A stretch of DNA of 46,969 bases from a virus (IMGVR_UViG_3300045988_152627); one strand, 5' to 3'. Shown: positions 9,584 through 46,092, numbered from the stretch's first letter. Notes: generated by a model from the letters alone, not told the origin. Numbers and translations are program-made.

Positions 9584-11047
9584 TTATTCAGAAAACAAGT
9601 TCAGCAGATAATCAGGATTATACTCCATGACGAACTCAATATCTCTGGCAGGTGAGAATGGTGTCATTTTTACATGGAATTTAACAATCCCGTCCATTAA
9701 TGACGTAATCGTGTTTTCAGACTGATCAAAGGTAACAACACCACCTGCAATATCCTGATTACCTGTGAGGCCGTTAAGCCAAATATTCGCACTTGTAACA
9801 ATCGATTCAATTAATCGACGGTTTGCAGGATTGTCTATTTTTGACCAATGCGAAAGAATTAACGTATTACCCACCCAGTTAAACATACGTCGGCAAACAC
9901 GAAATGCGTCTTTGGGGTCTGTAGATGTTGGATAAATAGCATTACGGTTTCCCCATGATTTCCAACCATCAAAATTAAGGCTTGTTACAATCCCCTGTCC
10001 ATTTAAGTAGTTTGCCTGGCTAATGTTAAGCCATACTTCACTGCCATCTTTACGTACAGCACCGTCCATCTGTAGTTTTATATTTGACGGAGAACGTGAT
10101 GGAATATCACCATACTGACTATCCAGCAAGCATGTTGCGGCCGCTAAATGGGTTGAGTGATGGTAAATATTGTCACCAAGTTTCACCATCGGCCAGCACA
10201 CTGTCTGGTTAGCGGCCATGTGATTATTGTTCTGTTTCCATTCAGGAACAGCCGAGTAATCACTGATAGTAGATTTATCGGTCGGCGCATCCGTTATAGC
10301 TTCTGCTTTGAACAATTCACTAATCAGCGCGGCTTTAGCCGCCATTAGCTGACCAACTTCACTATCAGAACTAAATCCAGGTGCAATCACTTGTCCAGGA
10401 ACTAACTTGAAGCGGGGATACACATCTGACAGTAACTCAAGCCCTGTATTGGCTTTAGTGTTGGAATCCACACCACCGATAATGTCATTTTTAGTTACGG
10501 CACCGGGATCAAGATGCGTATAACTAACCTTAAGAGTAGCGTCTTTTTCGGTAATTTTTCCTCCGCTAATAGCTGTAATGACCGTATAGCCATTATCATC
10601 CAGCGCCAGCACATAATCGGTATCAACCGTTAACCCAGGCGAATCACCATCTGCTTTTTTCACAACAACAGATTTATATAAGACACCATCGTTAGAGAGC
10701 GTACCTTTCCCGCCAGAAAGTTTTACTAACTCATCAGTAACGTCTTTCTTATGCTTTGCTGGATCAAGCACATTGATAAATACAACTGGCGCAACACCAT
10801 ATATTCCAAATGCGACTTTAATTACTTCGCTTAAAGTATATTTCTCGAAGTTTGTGCTATATCCTATTTTAGATACGGCCTCTGCGTATGTATAAGCAAT
10901 GATAGGTTTATTTACCGCTGAGGCTGGATCTTCTAACTGATTAACAGGAGCCGTACCAAATGCGACAATCAACCCAGCACTAACTTGCACTGGAGGAGTT
11001 ATAGATGTAGCCAGTTCAGATATATAAATACCGTGGCGATATCCCAT
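9584..11047 (-). CDS. Contractile tail sheath protein (FI-like)
   Basis: 487 aa, first gene of the sheath-tube-chaperone-tape measure block. Confidence 0.75.
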   Translation of the reverse strand: MGYRHGIYISELATSITPPVQVSAGLIVAFGTAPVNQLEDPASAVNKPIIAYTYAEAVSKIGYSTNFEKYTLSEVIKVAFGIYGVAPVVFINVLDPAKHKKDVTDELVKLSGGKGTLSNDGVLYKSVVVKKADGDSPGLTVDTDYVLALDDNGYTVITAISGGKITEKDATLKVSYTHLDPGAVTKNDIIGGVDSNTKANTGLELLSDVYPRFKLVPGQVIAPGFSSDSEVGQLMAAKAALISELFKAEAITDAPTDKSTISDYSAVPEWKQNNNHMAANQTVCWPMVKLGDNIYHHSTHLAAATCLLDSQYGDIPSRSPSNIKLQMDGAVRKDGSEVWLNISQANYLNGQGIVTSLNFDGWKSWGNRNAIYPTSTDPKDAFRVCRRMFNWVGNTLILSHWSKIDNPANRRLIESIVTSANIWLNGLTGNQDIAGGVVTFDQSENTITSLMDGIVKFHVKMTPFSPARDIEFVMEYNPDYLLNLFSE

Positions 11048-26083: not shown

Positions 26084-26159
26084 TTGGTGGCCCCTACCGG
26101 ATTTGAACCGATGACCGTGCGATTATGAGTCGCCTGCTCTAACCACTGAGCTAAGGGGC
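26084..26159 (-). tRNA. tRNA with CAU anticodon, most similar to tRNA-Ile2 (ileX-type); elongator Met not excluded
   Basis: 76-nt cloverleaf GGCCCCTTAGCTCAGTGGTTAGAGCAGGCGACTCATAATCGCACGGTCATCGGTTCAAATCCGGTAGGGGCCACCA: 7-bp acceptor stem, D and T arms, CTCATAA anticodon loop, encoded CCA. Confidence 0.85.
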
Positions 26160-26329
26160 CATATTTGATCTGTTTGTCTGGTGTGGCGCCGCGCACGAAA
26201 ATCCCAGCCAATAAATTCAGGATTTTTGGGCGCGGCGGCATATCAGACAAACATGGTTGATGCGTGCGCCCATGAGAAAAGCGCATAGAATGTTGTAACT
26301 ATATATTTATATAATTATAGAAATATATA

Positions 26330-33670: not shown

Positions 33671-34182
33671 TGATGGCCCCCGTCATTTCTGGTGCTTTTC
33701 ACCGTGCGGCTTCTTAAAAACCTGCCATCACGAACAACAGACACTTCTCGTTTACCCAACCTCATTTCACGGCGGTAACATTCAGAAAATGCCTCGTCCG
33801 GCATCATATAAATGCGACGCTTCGCCTCCGTATCCAGAAGGGAACGGCTTGGGGTTACATATAAAAACGACTCATCAATAGGGACAAAACCACGAGCAAG
33901 AATTGCTGGCAGAATGCCAGGAAGAACGCAGAAAACAGCTCCACGATGCAGCAACATCTGGTACTCCATGACCTCCGTTATCCCCGTGACGACTGTTACG
34001 GTGTCACGTCTGTTACGGCTGGCAACCAGTCGCTGCACACGTCCAATTTTCTGATCTACAGATAGATGTTTGCTATCGTTATCAATATGATCGATAACAA
34101 ATCCTTTAATCGTTTGATCAAGGTAGTGCACCACCTGCGATTGAATCTGGTGATTATCACCAAAGAAGGCCAGAATCATCAT
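33667..34182 (-). CDS. Hypothetical protein
   Basis: 171 aa ORF in the early operon; no recognisable motif. Confidence 0.35.
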   Translation of the reverse strand: MMILAFFGDNHQIQSQVVHYLDQTIKGFVIDHIDNDSKHLSVDQKIGRVQRLVASRNRRDTVTVVTGITEVMEYQMLLHRGAVFCVLPGILPAILARGFVPIDESFLYVTPSRSLLDTEAKRRIYMMPDEAFSECYRREMRLGKREVSVVRDGRFLRSRTVKSTRNDGGHQ

Positions 34183-34673
34183 TCCTCAAGCCTCCCAAGT
34201 GCTGAACGCCGGGCGTTGCTAATCTCCTTATGAATCAGCTCGATATCGCTGGAATCTTTATTCTTAAGCTCCAGCACGGCAATCGCATCACGAACCTCTG
34301 AAACGGTTACGTGTGAGTGTTTCCAGCGAGCAATGAATCGCGGACCGCGTAGATTGCAACGCTCCGCAGGCATCCCCAGCTCAGAGAAAACCGCTTTCAG
34401 CCTTGATAAGCAGTTAACAGGGAGATTCCCTTTGATCTTGTTCTGCCGAACCGATGTGCCATCGCTACGCTGGCGCTGACGTTCGGCAAAATCTGCCGCC
34501 CATTGCTGGACGTTAATCCGGCCTTCCGAATACGCCACCAGCCGCGTCAGGTTATCCGCACGAGGGAATCTCTCGAAGCGATACCAGGCACCAATCAGTG
34601 ATGACGTAAAGCCAAACTTTCTGGCAACACCAATTTGGCCTCCATTTTCGTCAACCCACTCCTGAAAGGTCAT
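34179..34673 (-). CDS. Cro/YdaS-like early regulator with C-terminal extension
   Basis: 164 aa; N-terminal 60 aa resemble Cro/DicC-type HTH; first gene of the minus-strand early operon, divergent from the repressor. Confidence 0.5.
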   Translation of the reverse strand: MTFQEWVDENGGQIGVARKFGFTSSLIGAWYRFERFPRADNLTRLVAYSEGRINVQQWAADFAERQRQRSDGTSVRQNKIKGNLPVNCLSRLKAVFSELGMPAERCNLRGPRFIARWKHSHVTVSEVRDAIAVLELKNKDSSDIELIHKEISNARRSALGRLEE

Positions 34674-34847
34674 TTAACGAACTCCAATTAAAACCACGAT
34701 ATGTGGTATTAAAACCACATATCGTGAGTTTTTCAATGGGCGAAACAAAAAATAACCTTCTAATTGTGGTCCACCTCTCGTCTTACCATGTGAAAACCAC
34801 TAAATGTGGTAATGTATAAATAACCCACCATTCACGATTGATGAGAC
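34674..34847. promoter_or_regulatory. Immunity-region operator/promoter block with three CCAC-N5-GTGG-type operators
   Basis: ACCACGATATGTGGT (34693..34707), ACCACATATCGTGAG (34713..34727), ACCACTAAATGTGGT (34796..34810) between divergent repressor and Cro-like genes. Confidence 0.6.
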
Positions 34848-35504
34848 ATGAAAAGCAACGACGAGAACATCAAGAAAGAAATAGGTCTGCGCATTCAGAC
34901 TCTACGGAAACAATCCGGCATGACTGCCGGAGATCTCCAGCAAGTCACTGGAATAGGCTTAAGCACCTTGCAGAACTATGAGGCCGGATTAAGACAACCA
35001 TCTATACCTGCCATCAAGAAAATCGCGCACGCCCTGAAAGCATCAGCGCCTTATATCGCGTGCTTAACAGATAACCCGTTCCCACCCCAGAATACTAACG
35101 CTCCTGTTATTCCTGGGCTTGTAGCTATAAAAAATGACATAGCATCGCACGCCGGAGAAAAGCCAGTGCTGGCGATAGAACAGGAGATTCTACGAAGCAA
35201 GAACATCAACCCATCGTCTCTGTCAGTTCTCCAGAGCAACGATGAGTTAATGTCACCAACAATATCCCCAGGCTCCCAAGTCCTGATTAATACAGACGAT
35301 ACAGAGATTCATGAGGGGATCTATGCCCTTGAAGACAGAAATGGCCTGGTTGTTTTGAGGCACTGTAGAGTCATACCGGGTGACAATGCTGTTATGCTGT
35401 CAACCGAAAGGGATGCTGAAATGAACACTAATCATCTGAATAACGAGGAATTTAAGCGTTATAAAGTTCTTGGCCGCGTAGTTAGTGTTGTCAACTGGTT
35501 ATGA
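34848..35504 (+). CDS. CI-like repressor (XRE HTH + S24/LexA-like C-terminal domain)
   Basis: 218 aa; HTH TAGDLQQVTGIGLSTLQNYEAG; C-terminal LexA/UmuD-like layout ending KVLGRVVSVVNWL. Confidence 0.8.
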   Translation: MKSNDENIKKEIGLRIQTLRKQSGMTAGDLQQVTGIGLSTLQNYEAGLRQPSIPAIKKIAHALKASAPYIACLTDNPFPPQNTNAPVIPGLVAIKNDIASHAGEKPVLAIEQEILRSKNINPSSLSVLQSNDELMSPTISPGSQVLINTDDTEIHEGIYALEDRNGLVVLRHCRVIPGDNAVMLSTERDAEMNTNHLNNEEFKRYKVLGRVVSVVNWL

Positions 35505-35545
35505 TACACAGCACGGCGAAAGCCGTGCATTTCTACGCTCAAAAA

Positions 35546-35560
35546 AACCACGCTTTGTGG
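35546..35560. promoter_or_regulatory. Operator-like palindrome ACCACGCTTTGTGGT overlapping a promoter for 35597..35971
   Basis: Same CCAC-N5-GTGG pattern as the immunity-region operators; followed by TTGACA and TATAAA elements and RBS AAGAGG. Confidence 0.45.
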
Positions 35561-35596
35561 TTTTGACAACATGTGAAAGTATAAAAGAGGCTACGC

Positions 35597-37279: not shown

Positions 37280-37295
37280 ATTCAACCATAAAAAA

Positions 37296-37311
37296 GGCCC
37301 CCGAAGGGGCC
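37296..37311. terminator. Bidirectional terminator hairpin GGCCCCCGAAGGGGCC
   Basis: Perfect GC-rich hairpin flanked by an A-run upstream and T-rich sequence on the opposite strand. Confidence 0.55.
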
Positions 37312-37877
37312 TAATCGCTACTTGCTGCTAATGTTTATCGTCACATTCAGAGCGTTATCAGTAATCTTCCAACCCTCCCCATGTGGCGTAAACAAAGCCC
37401 CAGTAACAACGATAAAAATACACATACAGTATTTTTTCATTGTATGGCCCTTACAGGCCGTTTCACGGCATCCCCACCGACGAAAACAACGCGAGAGCAA
37501 GCACGGCTGCTTGTGCTTGCATGTACGGCAACAGGAAATCCTCCCCTAAAGTCGGTGCCCGGGTGCGAATCGGCGGGAAGGTCCACAGGTATTTTACGAT
37601 TATTTTAAGATTAGTAATAGGAAATAAATTAAACGAAAAAACCAGTTTATTTTCACAAAATCAGTAACCTACCCACAATCTGTGAGTTTGCAGACACAAC
37701 AAGAACCACAATTTTTTGAAGCATAATAGTGGACTATTATTACCTTTTGGGTAAAATCAACTTGCTGCTTGTGCTTGCGTGGTTGTTTATACAACAACGT
37801 AATGCTGAAAGGACCGCGAATCCGATCAGCACGAAAGAACCGTCCTCAATAGGGCGGTTTTTTTGTTTCTTCACTCA

Positions 37878-38417
37878 TTAAAACAGTCCAAGACCTGTTA
37901 ATGGCTTCTGATAATCTCGATTATTCATATCAGCGCCGTTATCGACCCAATTTCTATATGCTTCATCGCAACAATACATTACAGCAGTTGGAGTATCTGG
38001 GATGCCGCCCCCAAATGAGAATCCCATTGAGCTAATGCTAACTCTTTCTAATGGCCTATTTCTCAATGCTTCAAACCCCTTGCTATTAAAGTAACGCAGC
38101 ATCAGAGGTAAAAGGTTATCCTCGTCCTGACTGATTGTTCCAGGGAAAAAGTAGTAACCATAACGGTTAAATTCGGGAATAAGATTTTCTACCAATGACA
38201 TGAAATTCACTGGAGTAATATTAAGGGCTGTGAAAGCACCAAAAAGGGCGTCAACTGTTAATACAGACTGCCCGTTCTCTATCTTTGTCCATGCGTTTGG
38301 TGTTTTTCCAGCAGCTTGAGCCAGTACTCCTTGATGCACACCTCTTTCTAGCCTAAGTTCTTTTATGATCATTAGGTGAATTGTTGAAAAACATGAGTTT
38401 TTTGACTGTTCAATCAT
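37878..38417 (-). CDS. XRE-type HTH domain fused to an uncharacterised C-terminal domain
   Basis: 179 aa; N-terminal HTH LAQAAGKTPNAWTKIENGQSVLTVDALF; low-GC gene flanked by AT-rich non-coding DNA. Confidence 0.5.
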   Translation of the reverse strand: MIEQSKNSCFSTIHLMIIKELRLERGVHQGVLAQAAGKTPNAWTKIENGQSVLTVDALFGAFTALNITPVNFMSLVENLIPEFNRYGYYFFPGTISQDEDNLLPLMLRYFNSKGFEALRNRPLERVSISSMGFSFGGGIPDTPTAVMYCCDEAYRNWVDNGADMNNRDYQKPLTGLGLF

Positions 38418-38554
38418 TTTTTATCCCCATATTGAATTTTTTCTTTGTTCCCAACTTTAACAAAACACCACAACTTAGGAATGTATAGTTCCTTAAATGA
38501 ATCATACATTCCCACCTTCGGTATATCAAGAAAATTAAAAGCTCGGCATTCAAA

Positions 38555-38569
38555 CCCACACTATGTGGT
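38555..38569. promoter_or_regulatory. Operator-like palindrome CCCACACTATGTGGT upstream of the antirepressor operon
   Basis: CCAC-N5-GTGG pattern 25 bp upstream of a TTGACA element at 38593..38598. Confidence 0.45.
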
Positions 38570-38864
38570 TGTCTCTGTTAAAATCCCGCCGTATTGACAT
38601 GAATGCGCCATTGGTGGACACTTTCCGAGCCGTAGCAAAATCTACGGTCGGGATTAGCCTCCTGAATAACACGATGGCGCATACCGCGTTAGCGGTTTTT
38701 TTATGCGTAGAGCACTGTTACGCCCAAATTATGGTGGGTCGTACAGGGGCGGAGAAATCCGCGCCGGTTCGTCATTGTGTCCGGTAAGGCTAACCCTGTA
38801 CGGCTCACCACCATTTGATTAGCCTCGAATGGCGGTGATAGTTCCATATATTGGAGATATCACA

Positions 38865-39056
38865 ATGACAAACTTACCCCATGACTATTACGTCAACCTC
38901 GTAAAGATCCTTCTCAAGAAAGCCTCATACGCCGATAAATTCCGCCTGGCTGAAATAATCGAGCGCGAAGCTATGCGCATCGCCAGCAACGATAACGCTG
39001 TTTCTGACGCAAAAATCTCCCTCGTAACCAAAGTAGTTATGGGAGGTGCAAAATGA
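38865..39056 (+). CDS. Hypothetical small protein, coupled to the antirepressor
   Basis: 63 aa from ATG 38865 (RBS GGAGAT); stop overlaps the antirepressor start. Confidence 0.35.
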   Translation: MTNLPHDYYVNLVKILLKKASYADKFRLAEIIEREAMRIASNDNAVSDAKISLVTKVVMGGAK

Positions 39057-40195
39057 AAACGCTTCCGACCGTTAACACCCTACAGCCTATCCTGCATAAC
39101 CAGATCCCCGTTATCACCACGGAGCTGCTTGCCAAACTATATGGCTGTAGCGTCGAATGTCTTCACAGAAATCACCACCGTAATAAGTCCCGGTTTACAG
39201 AAGGAAAACATTTCATAGTTGTAAAAGGTACAGATCTCCAAAGTTTGAAAATCTCTTTAAGAGATTTTCAAACCATCGCGAATAACGTTAGAAAGCTCAT
39301 CCTCTGGACCGAACGCGGGGCTGCACGTCACGCTAAAATGCTCGAAACCGATCAGGCATGGGATGTATTCGAACGGCTGGAAGACTGCTACTTCAACCAG
39401 AACGCGCAAACGGCCGCGACCGTAACCGTCTCACCAAACAATGCTCGTGAGGTTGTCGATACGCTCAACGCTAAACCAATGTATTACGTTAAGGTGTGCA
39501 ACAACGAGCCACTCACAACCTCAGCCGATGTTGCCCAAGCATTCAGCACCACAAACAATTCCATCGTTATGGCCATCGATGCGTTACGTATTCCTCGCAC
39601 AGCTGCGGCGCGTCACTTCTTTAAAGAACAACGACCGCTGGAAGGAAGCGACCGCGAAATAACAATCTATCGCATGACAAAAGACGGATTTACCTTGCTC
39701 ATGGAAAGTATCGACGGTCCAGGCGTGAAGGATATCAAGCTGGCCTACATTGAAGCCTTTAACGCTATCAGCAGCGTGTTAAAGGCAGAATACGAGCGAA
39801 TGCTATACAACCGACTGTATCAGGAAACAAAGATTATCCGAACGGCAACAGAACATCATCGGCTATTAACGGAACCAAACTACCGCAAGACACTAATCAA
39901 AGAATTTGACAAGGCGACGGAGAAAACTAAAGCGGCACTAAATCTACCAACAATGACTAAAGATGATGTGATATCAGCCTTACTTCTTGATCTGCTCAGA
40001 AACGCCAGAGCACTTATCAGTTTTGACGAAAACCTGAATCCTCAGCTCAAGCTACTACCACCGACAGGCAAAGTAGTCGACCAAGCAGATCACAACAGCA
40101 TACTCAGCGTACTGGATGCAAACCTGCCAGCCAGGACACTACAGGAGCTGATAAAAATATCTGCGGATAAACTGGCCGCAGGTGCAAAACCATAA
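39053..40195 (+). CDS. Phage antirepressor (KilA-N/ORF6N-like N-terminus plus Rha-like domain)
   Basis: 380 aa; N-terminal ITTELLAKLYGCS...KHFIVVKGTDL and central TSADVAQAFSTTNNSIVMAIDAL resembling the Rha motif. Confidence 0.65.
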   Translation: MKTLPTVNTLQPILHNQIPVITTELLAKLYGCSVECLHRNHHRNKSRFTEGKHFIVVKGTDLQSLKISLRDFQTIANNVRKLILWTERGAARHAKMLETDQAWDVFERLEDCYFNQNAQTAATVTVSPNNAREVVDTLNAKPMYYVKVCNNEPLTTSADVAQAFSTTNNSIVMAIDALRIPRTAAARHFFKEQRPLEGSDREITIYRMTKDGFTLLMESIDGPGVKDIKLAYIEAFNAISSVLKAEYERMLYNRLYQETKIIRTATEHHRLLTEPNYRKTLIKEFDKATEKTKAALNLPTMTKDDVISALLLDLLRNARALISFDENLNPQLKLLPPTGKVVDQADHNSILSVLDANLPARTLQELIKISADKLAAGAKP

Positions 40196-45054: not shown

Positions 45055-45903
45055 TTAATGCTGGAGTGATTTCCAGGTCTTTCTTAGCCTGTTATAACGC
45101 TGCTCAACGAGGGATCGTAAATATGCAAGGTCAGCTCCAGGATACATGCCATCAGCAAATTCCTGGCTAACCTCTCTAGTGATTTGATGACGAAGTTCGG
45201 CCTCTCCCTTTTCCCGAACAAGACGCGCAGCTCTCTCCGCTGCTTTCTGTTTTGCCTTTATCTCTCTAGCCGTCTTCCTCTGACGCCATACATTCTCCAT
45301 CTGCTCCTGAATAACAATACGCTTATAATCAGCCTCCGTTATCGCTTTTTTAAGCCGTTCGCTATTCTTCGCATTGAAGTAATTAAGTTTCTGGCTAACC
45401 GCACGTCTCCATGCTTGTTCAGTAATACCAACGGTTTCCAGAAGTTGATCACGAATCTCTATTTTCGCTGGCCAATACTGTTTATTCACCCGATCCCAGC
45501 GACGTTCATAATCAATAAAACCTAACGCTTTCAGTTGCGACAACGCCCTTGTACAGCGCGTTATAGACTTGTTCCCAGCTTCGGATACGGTAGACAGGCC
45601 GCAAAAATCAGCCAACGCCTCAGCACTGGCCAGAACCCGCTTAGAAATGATGTTTACATGGTGCAAAATCGCAGCAATCACAGCATTAATCGCCCGACGA
45701 CGATGCTCGTTTATCCGGCGTTTCCGCTCTGACGGTTGATTAACGTAGAACGCAACCTCACACGTAAGATCACGACCATTAATGCGCTGTAAAGCATCAG
45801 ATAACACCAGCGGCAGCTTGTGCGTATGGTGCTTTGGAGGCTGGAACTCCGGCGACAAATTACAAACGTAAGCTGAACGTAGAGACTGCATTGGTCTATC
45901 CAT
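45055..45903 (-). CDS. repA: Plasmid replication initiator RepA, IncFII RepA1 family
   Basis: Segment RRAINAVIAAILHH...GNKSITRCTRALSQLKALGFIDYE parallels RepA1 RRAIDALLQGL...GKLSITRATRALTFLSELGLITYQ; start taken at the internal ATG 45903 (about 282 aa); the longer ORF to 46041 overlaps the antisense RNA. Confidence 0.8.
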   Translation of the reverse strand: MDRPMQSLRSAYVCNLSPEFQPPKHHTHKLPLVLSDALQRINGRDLTCEVAFYVNQPSERKRRINEHRRRAINAVIAAILHHVNIISKRVLASAEALADFCGLSTVSEAGNKSITRCTRALSQLKALGFIDYERRWDRVNKQYWPAKIEIRDQLLETVGITEQAWRRAVSQKLNYFNAKNSERLKKAITEADYKRIVIQEQMENVWRQRKTAREIKAKQKAAERAARLVREKGEAELRHQITREVSQEFADGMYPGADLAYLRSLVEQRYNRLRKTWKSLQH

Positions 45904-45947
45904 ATGTTCGCTCTTGCGTCCACGGAAAACCAACGTATAATGGGAGT

Positions 45948-46036
45948 TGTCGAGGCGCCCATGGATTGTTGTTGGTTTTTGTTTCTTTCCGTGGATGTCG
46001 CAAGAAGCCCGCAGATTTATCTGCGGGCTTTTTGTT
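45948..46036 (+). ncRNA. CopA-like antisense RNA candidate (countertranscript to the repA leader)
   Basis: Plus-strand promoter TTGCGT-N16-TATAAT (45914..45941), stem-loop AAAACCAAC/GTTGGTTTT, and terminator hairpin AGCCCGCAGA-TTTA-TCTGCGGGCT plus T-run (46006..46036). Confidence 0.5.
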
Positions 46037-46077
46037 TCCATATCTGGTCACTTTCCAACCAGACACCCACAATCATA

Positions 46078-46092
46078 ACCACGTTACGTGGT
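46078..46092. promoter_or_regulatory. Operator-like palindrome ACCACGTTACGTGGT upstream of the repA leader
   Basis: Same CCAC-N5-GTGG pattern as the repressor operators, between the invertase stop and the repA control region. Confidence 0.4.

Follow-up and report, generated by a model that had tools for sequence, protein, structure and literature searches.

What controls the 174-bp gap (34674–34847) between two divergent regulator genes in this DNA, and how far does that control reach into the rest of the element? The window, that is, the whole stretch of 46,969 bp that was analysed, carries a 164-aa open reading frame (ORF) on the minus strand, starting at 34673, and a 218-aa ORF on the plus strand, starting at 34848, so that the coordinates which the earlier note had given for the gap are exact. 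That note had read the gap as an immunity region in which CCAC-N5-GTGG palindromes form a tripartite operator for a CI-like repressor. Our analysis indicates that the region is probably a CI/Cro-type immunity switch wired like those of N15 and phiKO2, in which a 21-bp dyad would serve as the operator of a helix-turn-helix (HTH) dimer, most likely that of the 218-aa CI-like repressor.

The element that carries the switch is a circular 47–49 kb enterobacterial phage-plasmid of E. coli. Yersinia phages vB_YpM_39, 41 and 44 share 99% identity with the region around the immunity gap, and 61 plasmids in PLSDB match this region, all of them non-mobilizable, ~44–52 kb in size and mostly from E. coli. 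The element is common: plasmids bear the immunity module in 70 of 5,426 complete E. coli genomes, one of them that of the reference strain ATCC 25922. A near-identical plasmid is annotated with a structural block of the myovirus type, together with an IncFII-type RepA, ParA, an ORF6N antirepressor and a RelE/ParE toxin–antitoxin pair. Matched by description, the element probably belongs to the recently named p-p47 family, whose members measure 47–54 kb, carry RepA with CopA/CopT and show no kinship with the ten known phage-plasmid types (bioRxiv 10.64898/2026.08.19.745698). In the text of that preprint the words 'repressor' and 'operator' do not occur (bioRxiv 10.64898/2026.08.19.745698). A literature search under the Yersinia phage names (vB_YpM) gave no result, and pSLy3 turned out to represent another phage-plasmid group. 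The relatives used for comparison were two Salmonella plasmids, contigs of the Citrobacter, Enterobacter and Yokenella type, and one IMG/VR viral contig; across these, the Cro-like proteins are 70–76% and the repressors 61–66% identical to the proteins of the window. The DNA around the sites has diverged in the relatives; in the Salmonella plasmids the module is 68% identical. P0017 and P0019, used as queries for viral scans, returned no matches.

All three palindromes quoted for the gap were recovered. O1 (ACCACGATATGTGGT, 34693–34707) is a perfect dyad located 20–34 bp upstream of the start codon of the Cro-like gene. The middle site, O2 (ACCACATATCGTGAG, 34714–34728), carries two mismatches to ACCAC-N5-GTGGT; its outer half-site, GTGAG, is imperfect throughout the E. 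coli clade and perfect in other genera. O3 (ACCACTAAATGTGGT, 34796–34810) lies 38–52 bp upstream of the repressor ATG and is nearly unchanged across relatives. Exact copies of CCAC-N5-GTGG in the 174-bp gap number two, O1 and O3. The centres of O1 and O2 are 21 bp apart and the pair forms a 13-bp inverted repeat, and O3 is placed 82 bp from O2 and 103 bp from O1 in the window, with an O2–O3 distance of 81–83 bp in all relatives. The proposal of a tripartite operator is partly supported: the CI-like gene (HTH_3, phrog_4) and the three sites agree with it, but the layout is two plus one and not that of a compact lambda-like OR. Midway between O2 and O3, a conserved block that resembles a half-site (TTGTGGTT, 34764–34771) is found in all relatives.

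The sites extend well beyond the gap. In the 46,969-bp window, CCAC-N5-GTGG was observed 6 times against an expectation of 0.27 ± 0.55, and none of 100 shuffles reached 6; outside the gap, exact copies begin at 35548, 38556, 46079 and 1298. We scanned the window with a symmetrised position weight matrix (PWM) derived from 30 homologous sites, which returned six sites with scores of 20.7–31.9, the next best scoring 11.1. Within the gap, O1, O2 and O3 scored 30.9, 24.8 and 26.9, respectively. The further sites are Opar (ACCACGCTTTGTGGT, 35547–35561; score 31.0), between the repressor terminator and the orf124–parA–parG-like operon; Oant (CCCACACTATGTGGT, 38555–38569; 20.7), which borders the antirepressor module on its left; and OrepA (ACCACGTTACGTGGT, 46078–46092; 31.9, the top score in the window), in the repA promoter. 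The three sites of the earlier note, all in the gap, are thereby extended to six that fit the operator model. Their consensus is a 21-bp dyad, AAAACCAC-RWWWY-GTGGTTTT, in which the central base is always A or T. The exact motif at 1298–1310 (CCACCTATTGTGG), in the tail-fibre/invertase region, was rejected as an operator: it scored 5.3, its flanks are off consensus and it has no counterpart in relatives, and it is probably a chance occurrence.

The palindromes, on whose absence from related immunity regions the earlier note was prepared to give up its reading, are present in all relatives examined. CCAC-N5-GTGG occurs at five homologous positions in the related loci that reach repA (L002, L003, L014, L016 and L019), and in the shorter loci L013 and L018 all four positions within reach carry it. 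In alignments of the relatives the half-sites are invariant, and the N5 spacer and much of the surrounding intergenic DNA vary. Opar repeats this pattern at close range, its N5 varying within the 97–99% identical E. coli clade while its half-sites remain constant, and the site is kept in all relatives; OrepA is conserved in every relative that reaches repA. Oant is limited to the E. coli clade: homology with L001 starts exactly at Oant, the left boundary of the antirepressor module, the counterpart is missing in the Salmonella relative L002 and no exact site was found there in the other relatives.

Candidate promoters coincide with the sites in the gap. A leftward early promoter is predicted on the minus strand at 34708–34736, with the −35 element TTGAAA (34736–34731), a 17-bp spacer that corresponds to O2, and the −10 element TTTAAT (34713–34708), which is A/T-rich and sits in the 6-bp linker between O2 and O1. 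With simple sigma-70 scoring, it was the top minus-strand candidate, at the same position, in six of six diverged genomes; across these the −35 reads TTGAAA, TTGATA or TTGCTT and the spacer measures 17–18 bp, and the −10 TTTAAT is without the usual A at position 2. On the plus strand, a repressor promoter is predicted at 34788–34815, with the −35 element ATGTGA, a 16-bp spacer and the extended −10 TGgTAATGT (ATGAAA or GTGAAA and TGgTAAnGT in relatives), and was the top plus-strand candidate in five of the six genomes and the fourth in the window. O3 overlaps the spacer and the extended −10, the TG of which lies within its right half-site. A stricter promoter scan of the window called none of the predicted promoters. 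As the best sigma-70 candidates are conserved in position and overlap operators, we counted them for the switch model, and their weakness against it: O1 would cover the leftward start site, and the three conserved dyads would overlap divergent promoters that are both weak predictions with a conserved position. The repressor gene has no convincing Shine–Dalgarno sequence in the window (34830–34850) or in any relative (GATGAGACATG; ACAGACGCGATATG), which suggests weak translation or an unusual mode of initiation.

The CI-like repressor gene (34848–35504, plus strand) encodes 218 amino acids with an HTH_3 N-domain and an S24-like C-domain. In Pfam, HTH_3 was matched with an E value of 4.5e-11, and Peptidase_S24 with 17.9 bits, under its cut-off of 23.3 bits; in PHROG, phrog_4 'transcriptional repressor' was matched over the full length (E 9e-27) and phrog_6201 'CI-like repressor' over residues 110–214. 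In an alignment with lambda CI and LexA, a catalytic Ser/Lys dyad was not found. The M-x-P-x-I-x-x-G motif aligns Leu134 with the catalytic Ser, DELM being invariant in relatives, and the position of the catalytic Lys is occupied by Arg171 or by Ser/Thr, depending on the alignment used; Ala102-Gly103 is not conserved, being replaced by Ser-Gly in two relatives. Because its S24-like domain is without the Ser/Lys dyad, the repressor, judged from these alignments, cannot cleave itself. Matches to the LexA box CTGT-N8-ACAG in the window were at chance level only, with none near the ant operon, and in the p-p47 preprint p-p49 is described as not induced by mitomycin C or ciprofloxacin (bioRxiv 10.64898/2026.08.19.745698). 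The HTH core of the repressor, TGIGLSTLQNYEAGLR, is invariant across relatives whose repressors are 61–66% identical overall. A tblastn search with the repressor against 50,697 phage records returned Vibrio/Aliivibrio phages at 26–29% identity, and N15 and phiKO2 are not among the matches listed (40 of 137 records). The gene is followed by a terminator-like hairpin that was read from the sequence (GCACGGC-GAAA-GCCGTGC, 35511–35535, plus strand); its stem is conserved, and relatives show a better T-run behind it. A type I-E CRISPR spacer, located in E. coli GMF054 on the chromosome and near the cas2e end of the array, is identical to 33 of 33 nt of the repressor gene (window 35111–35143; L028 1501–1533); in all, the search gave two chromosomal places.

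On the other side of the gap, the Cro-like gene (34179–34673, minus strand) heads the leftward early operon. The N-domain of its 164-aa product (residues ~1–70) is, in an AlphaFold model, an all-alpha five-helix HTH of the Cro/XRE type, and the C-domain (~85–164, after a linker) is modelled as four helices that appear to form a previously undescribed domain. The model was built from an alignment of 28 sequences, 11 close sequences having given a pLDDT of 59.8, and its best fold matches were Xfaso 1 Cro, the YdaS N-domain and N15 Cro. Neither the whole protein nor either half matched a Pfam family at E ≤ 10, and searches of NCBIfam and of PDB sequences yielded nothing usable; in a profile search against PDB sequences, Cro proteins came top, at non-significant E values of 0.03–1.3. 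PHROG places the protein in phrog_7452, with a weak match of its N-terminus to phrog_35. When 1.84 billion representatives were searched with a profile, only 29 proteins were recovered, among these about ten full-length relatives (132–196 aa, 27–42% identity) and many stand-alone proteins of ~70–82 aa that match residues 1–70; the four-helix C-domain is confined to ~10 clusters at 50% identity. P0032, a candidate stand-alone C-domain, has no Met start and looks like a composite of P0025 and P0023, and was treated as a truncated ORF. Among the stand-alone homologues, P0030 gave the best transitive match, to YdaS_toxin (PF15943; 29.2 bits against a cut-off of 30), and P22_Cro (PF14549) was matched with 16.3 bits, both below threshold. 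These weak matches, together with the fold matches, bear out the description of the protein as having a Cro/YdaS-like N-terminus and an extra C-domain. Compared with YdaS (PF15943), P22_Cro (PF14549), Xfaso 1 Cro and N15 Cro, it is twice as long, with the extra four-helix domain and no direct Pfam match. In a tblastn search of the phage collection it found four matches, N15 and phiKO2 not among these.

It would be possible to assign the sites to this protein instead, with the 164-aa Cro-like regulator as the main or sole binder of CCAC-N5-GTGG, its C-domain dimerising, and the CI-like repressor using a different motif or only some of the sites. We consider this unlikely, and it agrees less well with where the sites lie. 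It has in its favour that the protein carries a Cro-type HTH, that the extra helical domain could make a stable dimer, that the Cro proteins and prophage repressors of phiKO2 and PY54 differ in specificity (PMC4997575), and that two flavours of the motif occur within one intergenic region of a distant family described below. Sites at the repA and par promoters, however, suit a protein that the lysogen contains, and the promoter ahead of the Cro-like gene is itself covered by sites. Furthermore, relatives differ in the residues that open the recognition helix of the Cro-like protein (T/N/V/G/A, then S/A/T), whereas the half-sites and the HTH core of the repressor are invariant, which speaks for the CI-like protein as the binder. 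The choice between the two proteins is circumstantial.

A second alternative concerns the O1–O2 pair alone, which could act as an RNA or DNA hairpin, serving as an attenuator or as an intrinsic terminator for both directions ahead of the Cro-like gene. A terminator scan flags a stem of 13–14 bp followed by a T-run on both strands, and the predicted RNA fold reaches −24.9 kcal/mol (z −8.3) for the window sequence, with both Salmonella plasmids near −31 kcal/mol; but adjacent copies of one palindrome necessarily pair. The N5 is unpaired in L014, L016 and L019, where the fold is worth −14 to −19 kcal/mol (z −2.2 to −4.3), and the hairpin is weak in the Citrobacter, Enterobacter and Yokenella-type relatives, so that it was rejected as a conserved unit. 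Complementarity of the N5 across relatives averages ~2.5 of 5, as the RWWWY constraint alone predicts. As the hairpin also leaves the single sites O3, Opar, OrepA and Oant unexplained, we regard it as highly improbable, and we return to the reading of the dyads as operators of the CI-like repressor.

At OrepA, such a repressor would act on plasmid replication. The repA gene (45055–46041, minus strand) encodes a protein of the IncFII_repA family (PF02387; Pfam E 1.3e-43), with the real start probably at ~45888. In every genome examined, a conserved extended −10 element, TGnTAGAGT (TGgTAGAGT in the window, 46110–46102, minus strand), stands immediately upstream of OrepA, which would span about +1 to +20 of the repA promoter relative to the predicted start. 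The repA leader contains a conserved terminator on the antisense (plus) strand at 46006–46036, which fits a CopA-like RNA and a replicon of the IncFII RepA/CopA type. Another replication initiator was not found among the products of the leftward operon that were tested, which fits RepA serving both life-styles. The p-p47 preprint reports that CopA/CopT mutations raise the copy number of p-p49, and that the high-copy mutant DA81419 has no mutation in the repA leader and instead has a SNP in a phage-plasmid gene called 'a potential transcriptional regulator' (bioRxiv 10.64898/2026.08.19.745698). If the gene so described there is that of the 218-aa repressor, the mutant would directly support the OrepA model.

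Opar and Oant are less readily read as sites of repression, because Opar is without a convincing promoter and Oant lies upstream of the predicted start site. No promoter with a conserved position was found near Opar, the role of which is uncertain: it may repress a weak par promoter or serve as a distal looping partner ~750–850 bp from O1–O3. A strong promoter, TTGACA-17-GACACT, has its predicted start ~68 bp downstream of the centre of Oant, and this start coincides with the 5′ end of an isrK-like RNA. At both sites, weak repression, looping or a roadblock may be involved. The module behind Oant (38629–40195, plus strand) is immI-like by Rfam, PHROG and ORF6N annotation. It comprises the isrK-like RNA (38629–38702, plus strand; Rfam 65.7 bits, above the gathering score), a C4 antisense RNA (38727–38815; Rfam 70.8 bits against a gathering score of 45), a 63-aa ORF (38865–39056, plus strand) and the 380-aa Ant of the ORF6N/pRha type (39053–40195, plus strand), which matches anti-repressor PHROGs at 1e-54 to 1e-22. 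The arrangement that marks P1 immI is found here, the C4 antisense RNA being followed by a small ORF that is coupled to ant by overlap (at 39053); the isrK-like RNA directly ahead of C4 adds an extra Hfq-type small RNA to this P1-immI-like layout. Between the par operon and the ant module lies a window-specific segment (37280–38550), missing from L001 and L002, that holds a ryfA-like RNA (37290–37586, minus strand; 143 bits) and a 179-aa HTH gene (37878–38417, minus strand).

That the sites serve the partition or replication machinery instead (a ParG-like protein, the product of orf124 or RepA), or some host regulator, is barely credible and agrees less well with their distribution: one site does precede the orf124–parA–parG-like operon and one repA, and the 124-aa and 82-aa proteins match no known family, but half of the six sites are found in the gap between the immunity genes, centromeres and iterons usually form clustered arrays, not scattered single dyads, half-site centres 10 bp apart have the classical spacing of an HTH dimer, and we know of no enterobacterial regulator with a CCAC-N5-GTGG consensus.

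With the CI-like repressor as the probable binder, we infer the following wiring from the positions of the sites. In the lysogen, the repressor would occupy O1 and O2, two helical turns apart and bracketing the leftward −10, and thereby keep the early operon off (the Cro-like gene, the Ref nuclease, DUF1064, DUF3560 and onward). On O3, at its own promoter, it would regulate itself, and on OrepA, where transcription of the IncFII-type repA would start, it would hold the copy number low in addition to the CopA-like antisense control; it would also bind Opar and, in the E. coli clade, Oant. As the repressor is without the Ser/Lys dyad, induction is expected to depend on the antirepressor module, which is P1-immI-like (isrK/C4 RNAs, small ORF and Ant), and not on RecA. 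Loss of repression would then release the early operon and repA together, one replicon serving both plasmid maintenance and lytic replication, with the 164-aa Cro-like protein as the presumptive regulator of the lytic side, which may act on all sites or, like Cro of phiKO2 and PY54, on O3 alone.

The closest precedent for this wiring is immB of N15 and phiKO2. Shared with it are divergent repressor and cro genes with three operators between them, a repressor of lambda-like architecture without a RecA cleavage site or Ser/Lys dyad, an operator on the repA promoter (two in N15, one in the window) and a separate antirepressor locus. Mardanov and Ravin are said to have described such a separate locus in 2007. 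The components differ: no homology of repressor or Cro was seen among the tblastn matches listed, N15 Cro being a match at the level of the fold only; the N15/phiKO2 operator is a 16-bp T-A-N10-T-A sequence, whereas that of the window is a 15–21 bp CCAC-N5-GTGG dyad; and three sites within 80 bp there contrast with two plus one over ~120 bp here. N15 and phiKO2 are linear protelomerase plasmids, in contrast to the circular IncFII-type RepA/CopA replicon of the window, and the antirepressor of the immB type is SOS-controlled through a LexA box, whereas in the window no LexA box was found at the ant operon. We therefore class the switch as working like the N15 type and lying outside the N15 family. 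In N15 and phiKO2, the CB repressor, without the Ser/Lys residues, binds three operators in OR and two in OL, the latter at repA, and lowers the copy number (PMC4997575). The Cro proteins of phiKO2 and PY54 bind OR3 only (PMC4997575).

With lambda, P22 and 434, the switch shares predicted divergent promoters with dyad operators, a repressor of the HTH_3/S24 fold, a Cro-fold protein as the first early gene product and a possible distal looping operator. It differs in that the repressor is predicted not to be self-cleaving, that there is no row of three contiguous operators common to overlapping PR and PRM, and that operators are also placed on plasmid replication and partition genes. Dispersed operators are known from the plasmid prophage P1, in which those of C1 are scattered over the genome, including the replication and antirepressor operons; C1 is not of the HTH_3/S24 type, and its operators are asymmetric 17-mers. 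The window shares with immI of P1 and P7 the module of C4 antisense RNA, small ORF and Ant, and differs from them in having no equivalent of Lxc or Coi and in the isrK-like RNA ahead of C4. From the IncFII plasmids R1 and NR1, with their CopB control of PrepA, it is familiar to find an IncFII RepA, a CopA-like antisense leader and a protein operator on the repA promoter; in the window, however, no copB is annotated upstream of repA, where the neighbour is an invertase gene. The phage repressor would take the place of CopB at repA.

A wider reading can be built on this point, which we offer tentatively and would ourselves give somewhat less than an even chance. It holds that the prophage repressor plays the CopB role of an IncFII replicon through one operator at PrepA, that the antirepressor, by inactivating the repressor, sets off the early operon and at the same time converts the maintenance replicon into the lytic one, that the C-domain of the Cro-like protein has a second function, in stable dimerisation or as a link to replication, and that repressor mutations lead to copy-number-driven heteroresistance. 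The p-p47 preprint links copy-number-driven heteroresistance to piperacillin-tazobactam with the family that it describes (bioRxiv 10.64898/2026.08.19.745698). As a lysis–lysogeny switch the region is ordinary in kind; what is new is its description for this phage-plasmid element. The operator set offers an explanation for the lack of response to SOS inducers, and it is a candidate reason for the high copy number of the mutant with a changed 'transcriptional regulator'. The defined sites could be used for plasmid engineering or curing, and the principle known from N15/phiKO2, control of plasmid replication by a prophage repressor, would gain a circular, IncFII-based example. Elsewhere in the window, a tRNA gene (26088–26160, minus strand; 67 bits) is located in the region upstream of the lysis genes.

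A distant family, consisting of the IMG/VR contigs L020–L027 (~45–47 kb where complete), has the same order of immunity genes and a Cro-like protein that is 42% identical. Its intergenic region carries degenerate 4-N5-4 sites (nCCC-N5-GTGG, CTAC-N5-GTCG and nCTC-N5-GTAG), along with a TTGTAGTCA-N8-TGACTACAA palindrome. The family also has TTGTAG half-sites, and this mixture of degenerate variants was counted against the operator model. In L026, where the sites lie within 1620–1660 and 9860–9990, a perfect CTAC-AAAAC-GTAG is found at the homologous position of the repA promoter, following TGCTAGAGT. This single perfect site is not enriched by count (0.79 expected). The change to CTAC/GTAG coincides with a Leu-to-Arg substitution at the start of the recognition helix of the repressor and with several changes in the helix of the Cro-like protein. 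Both half-sites have changed symmetrically, as expected of a dimer-bound operator evolving with its regulator, a correspondence that we take as suggestive only.
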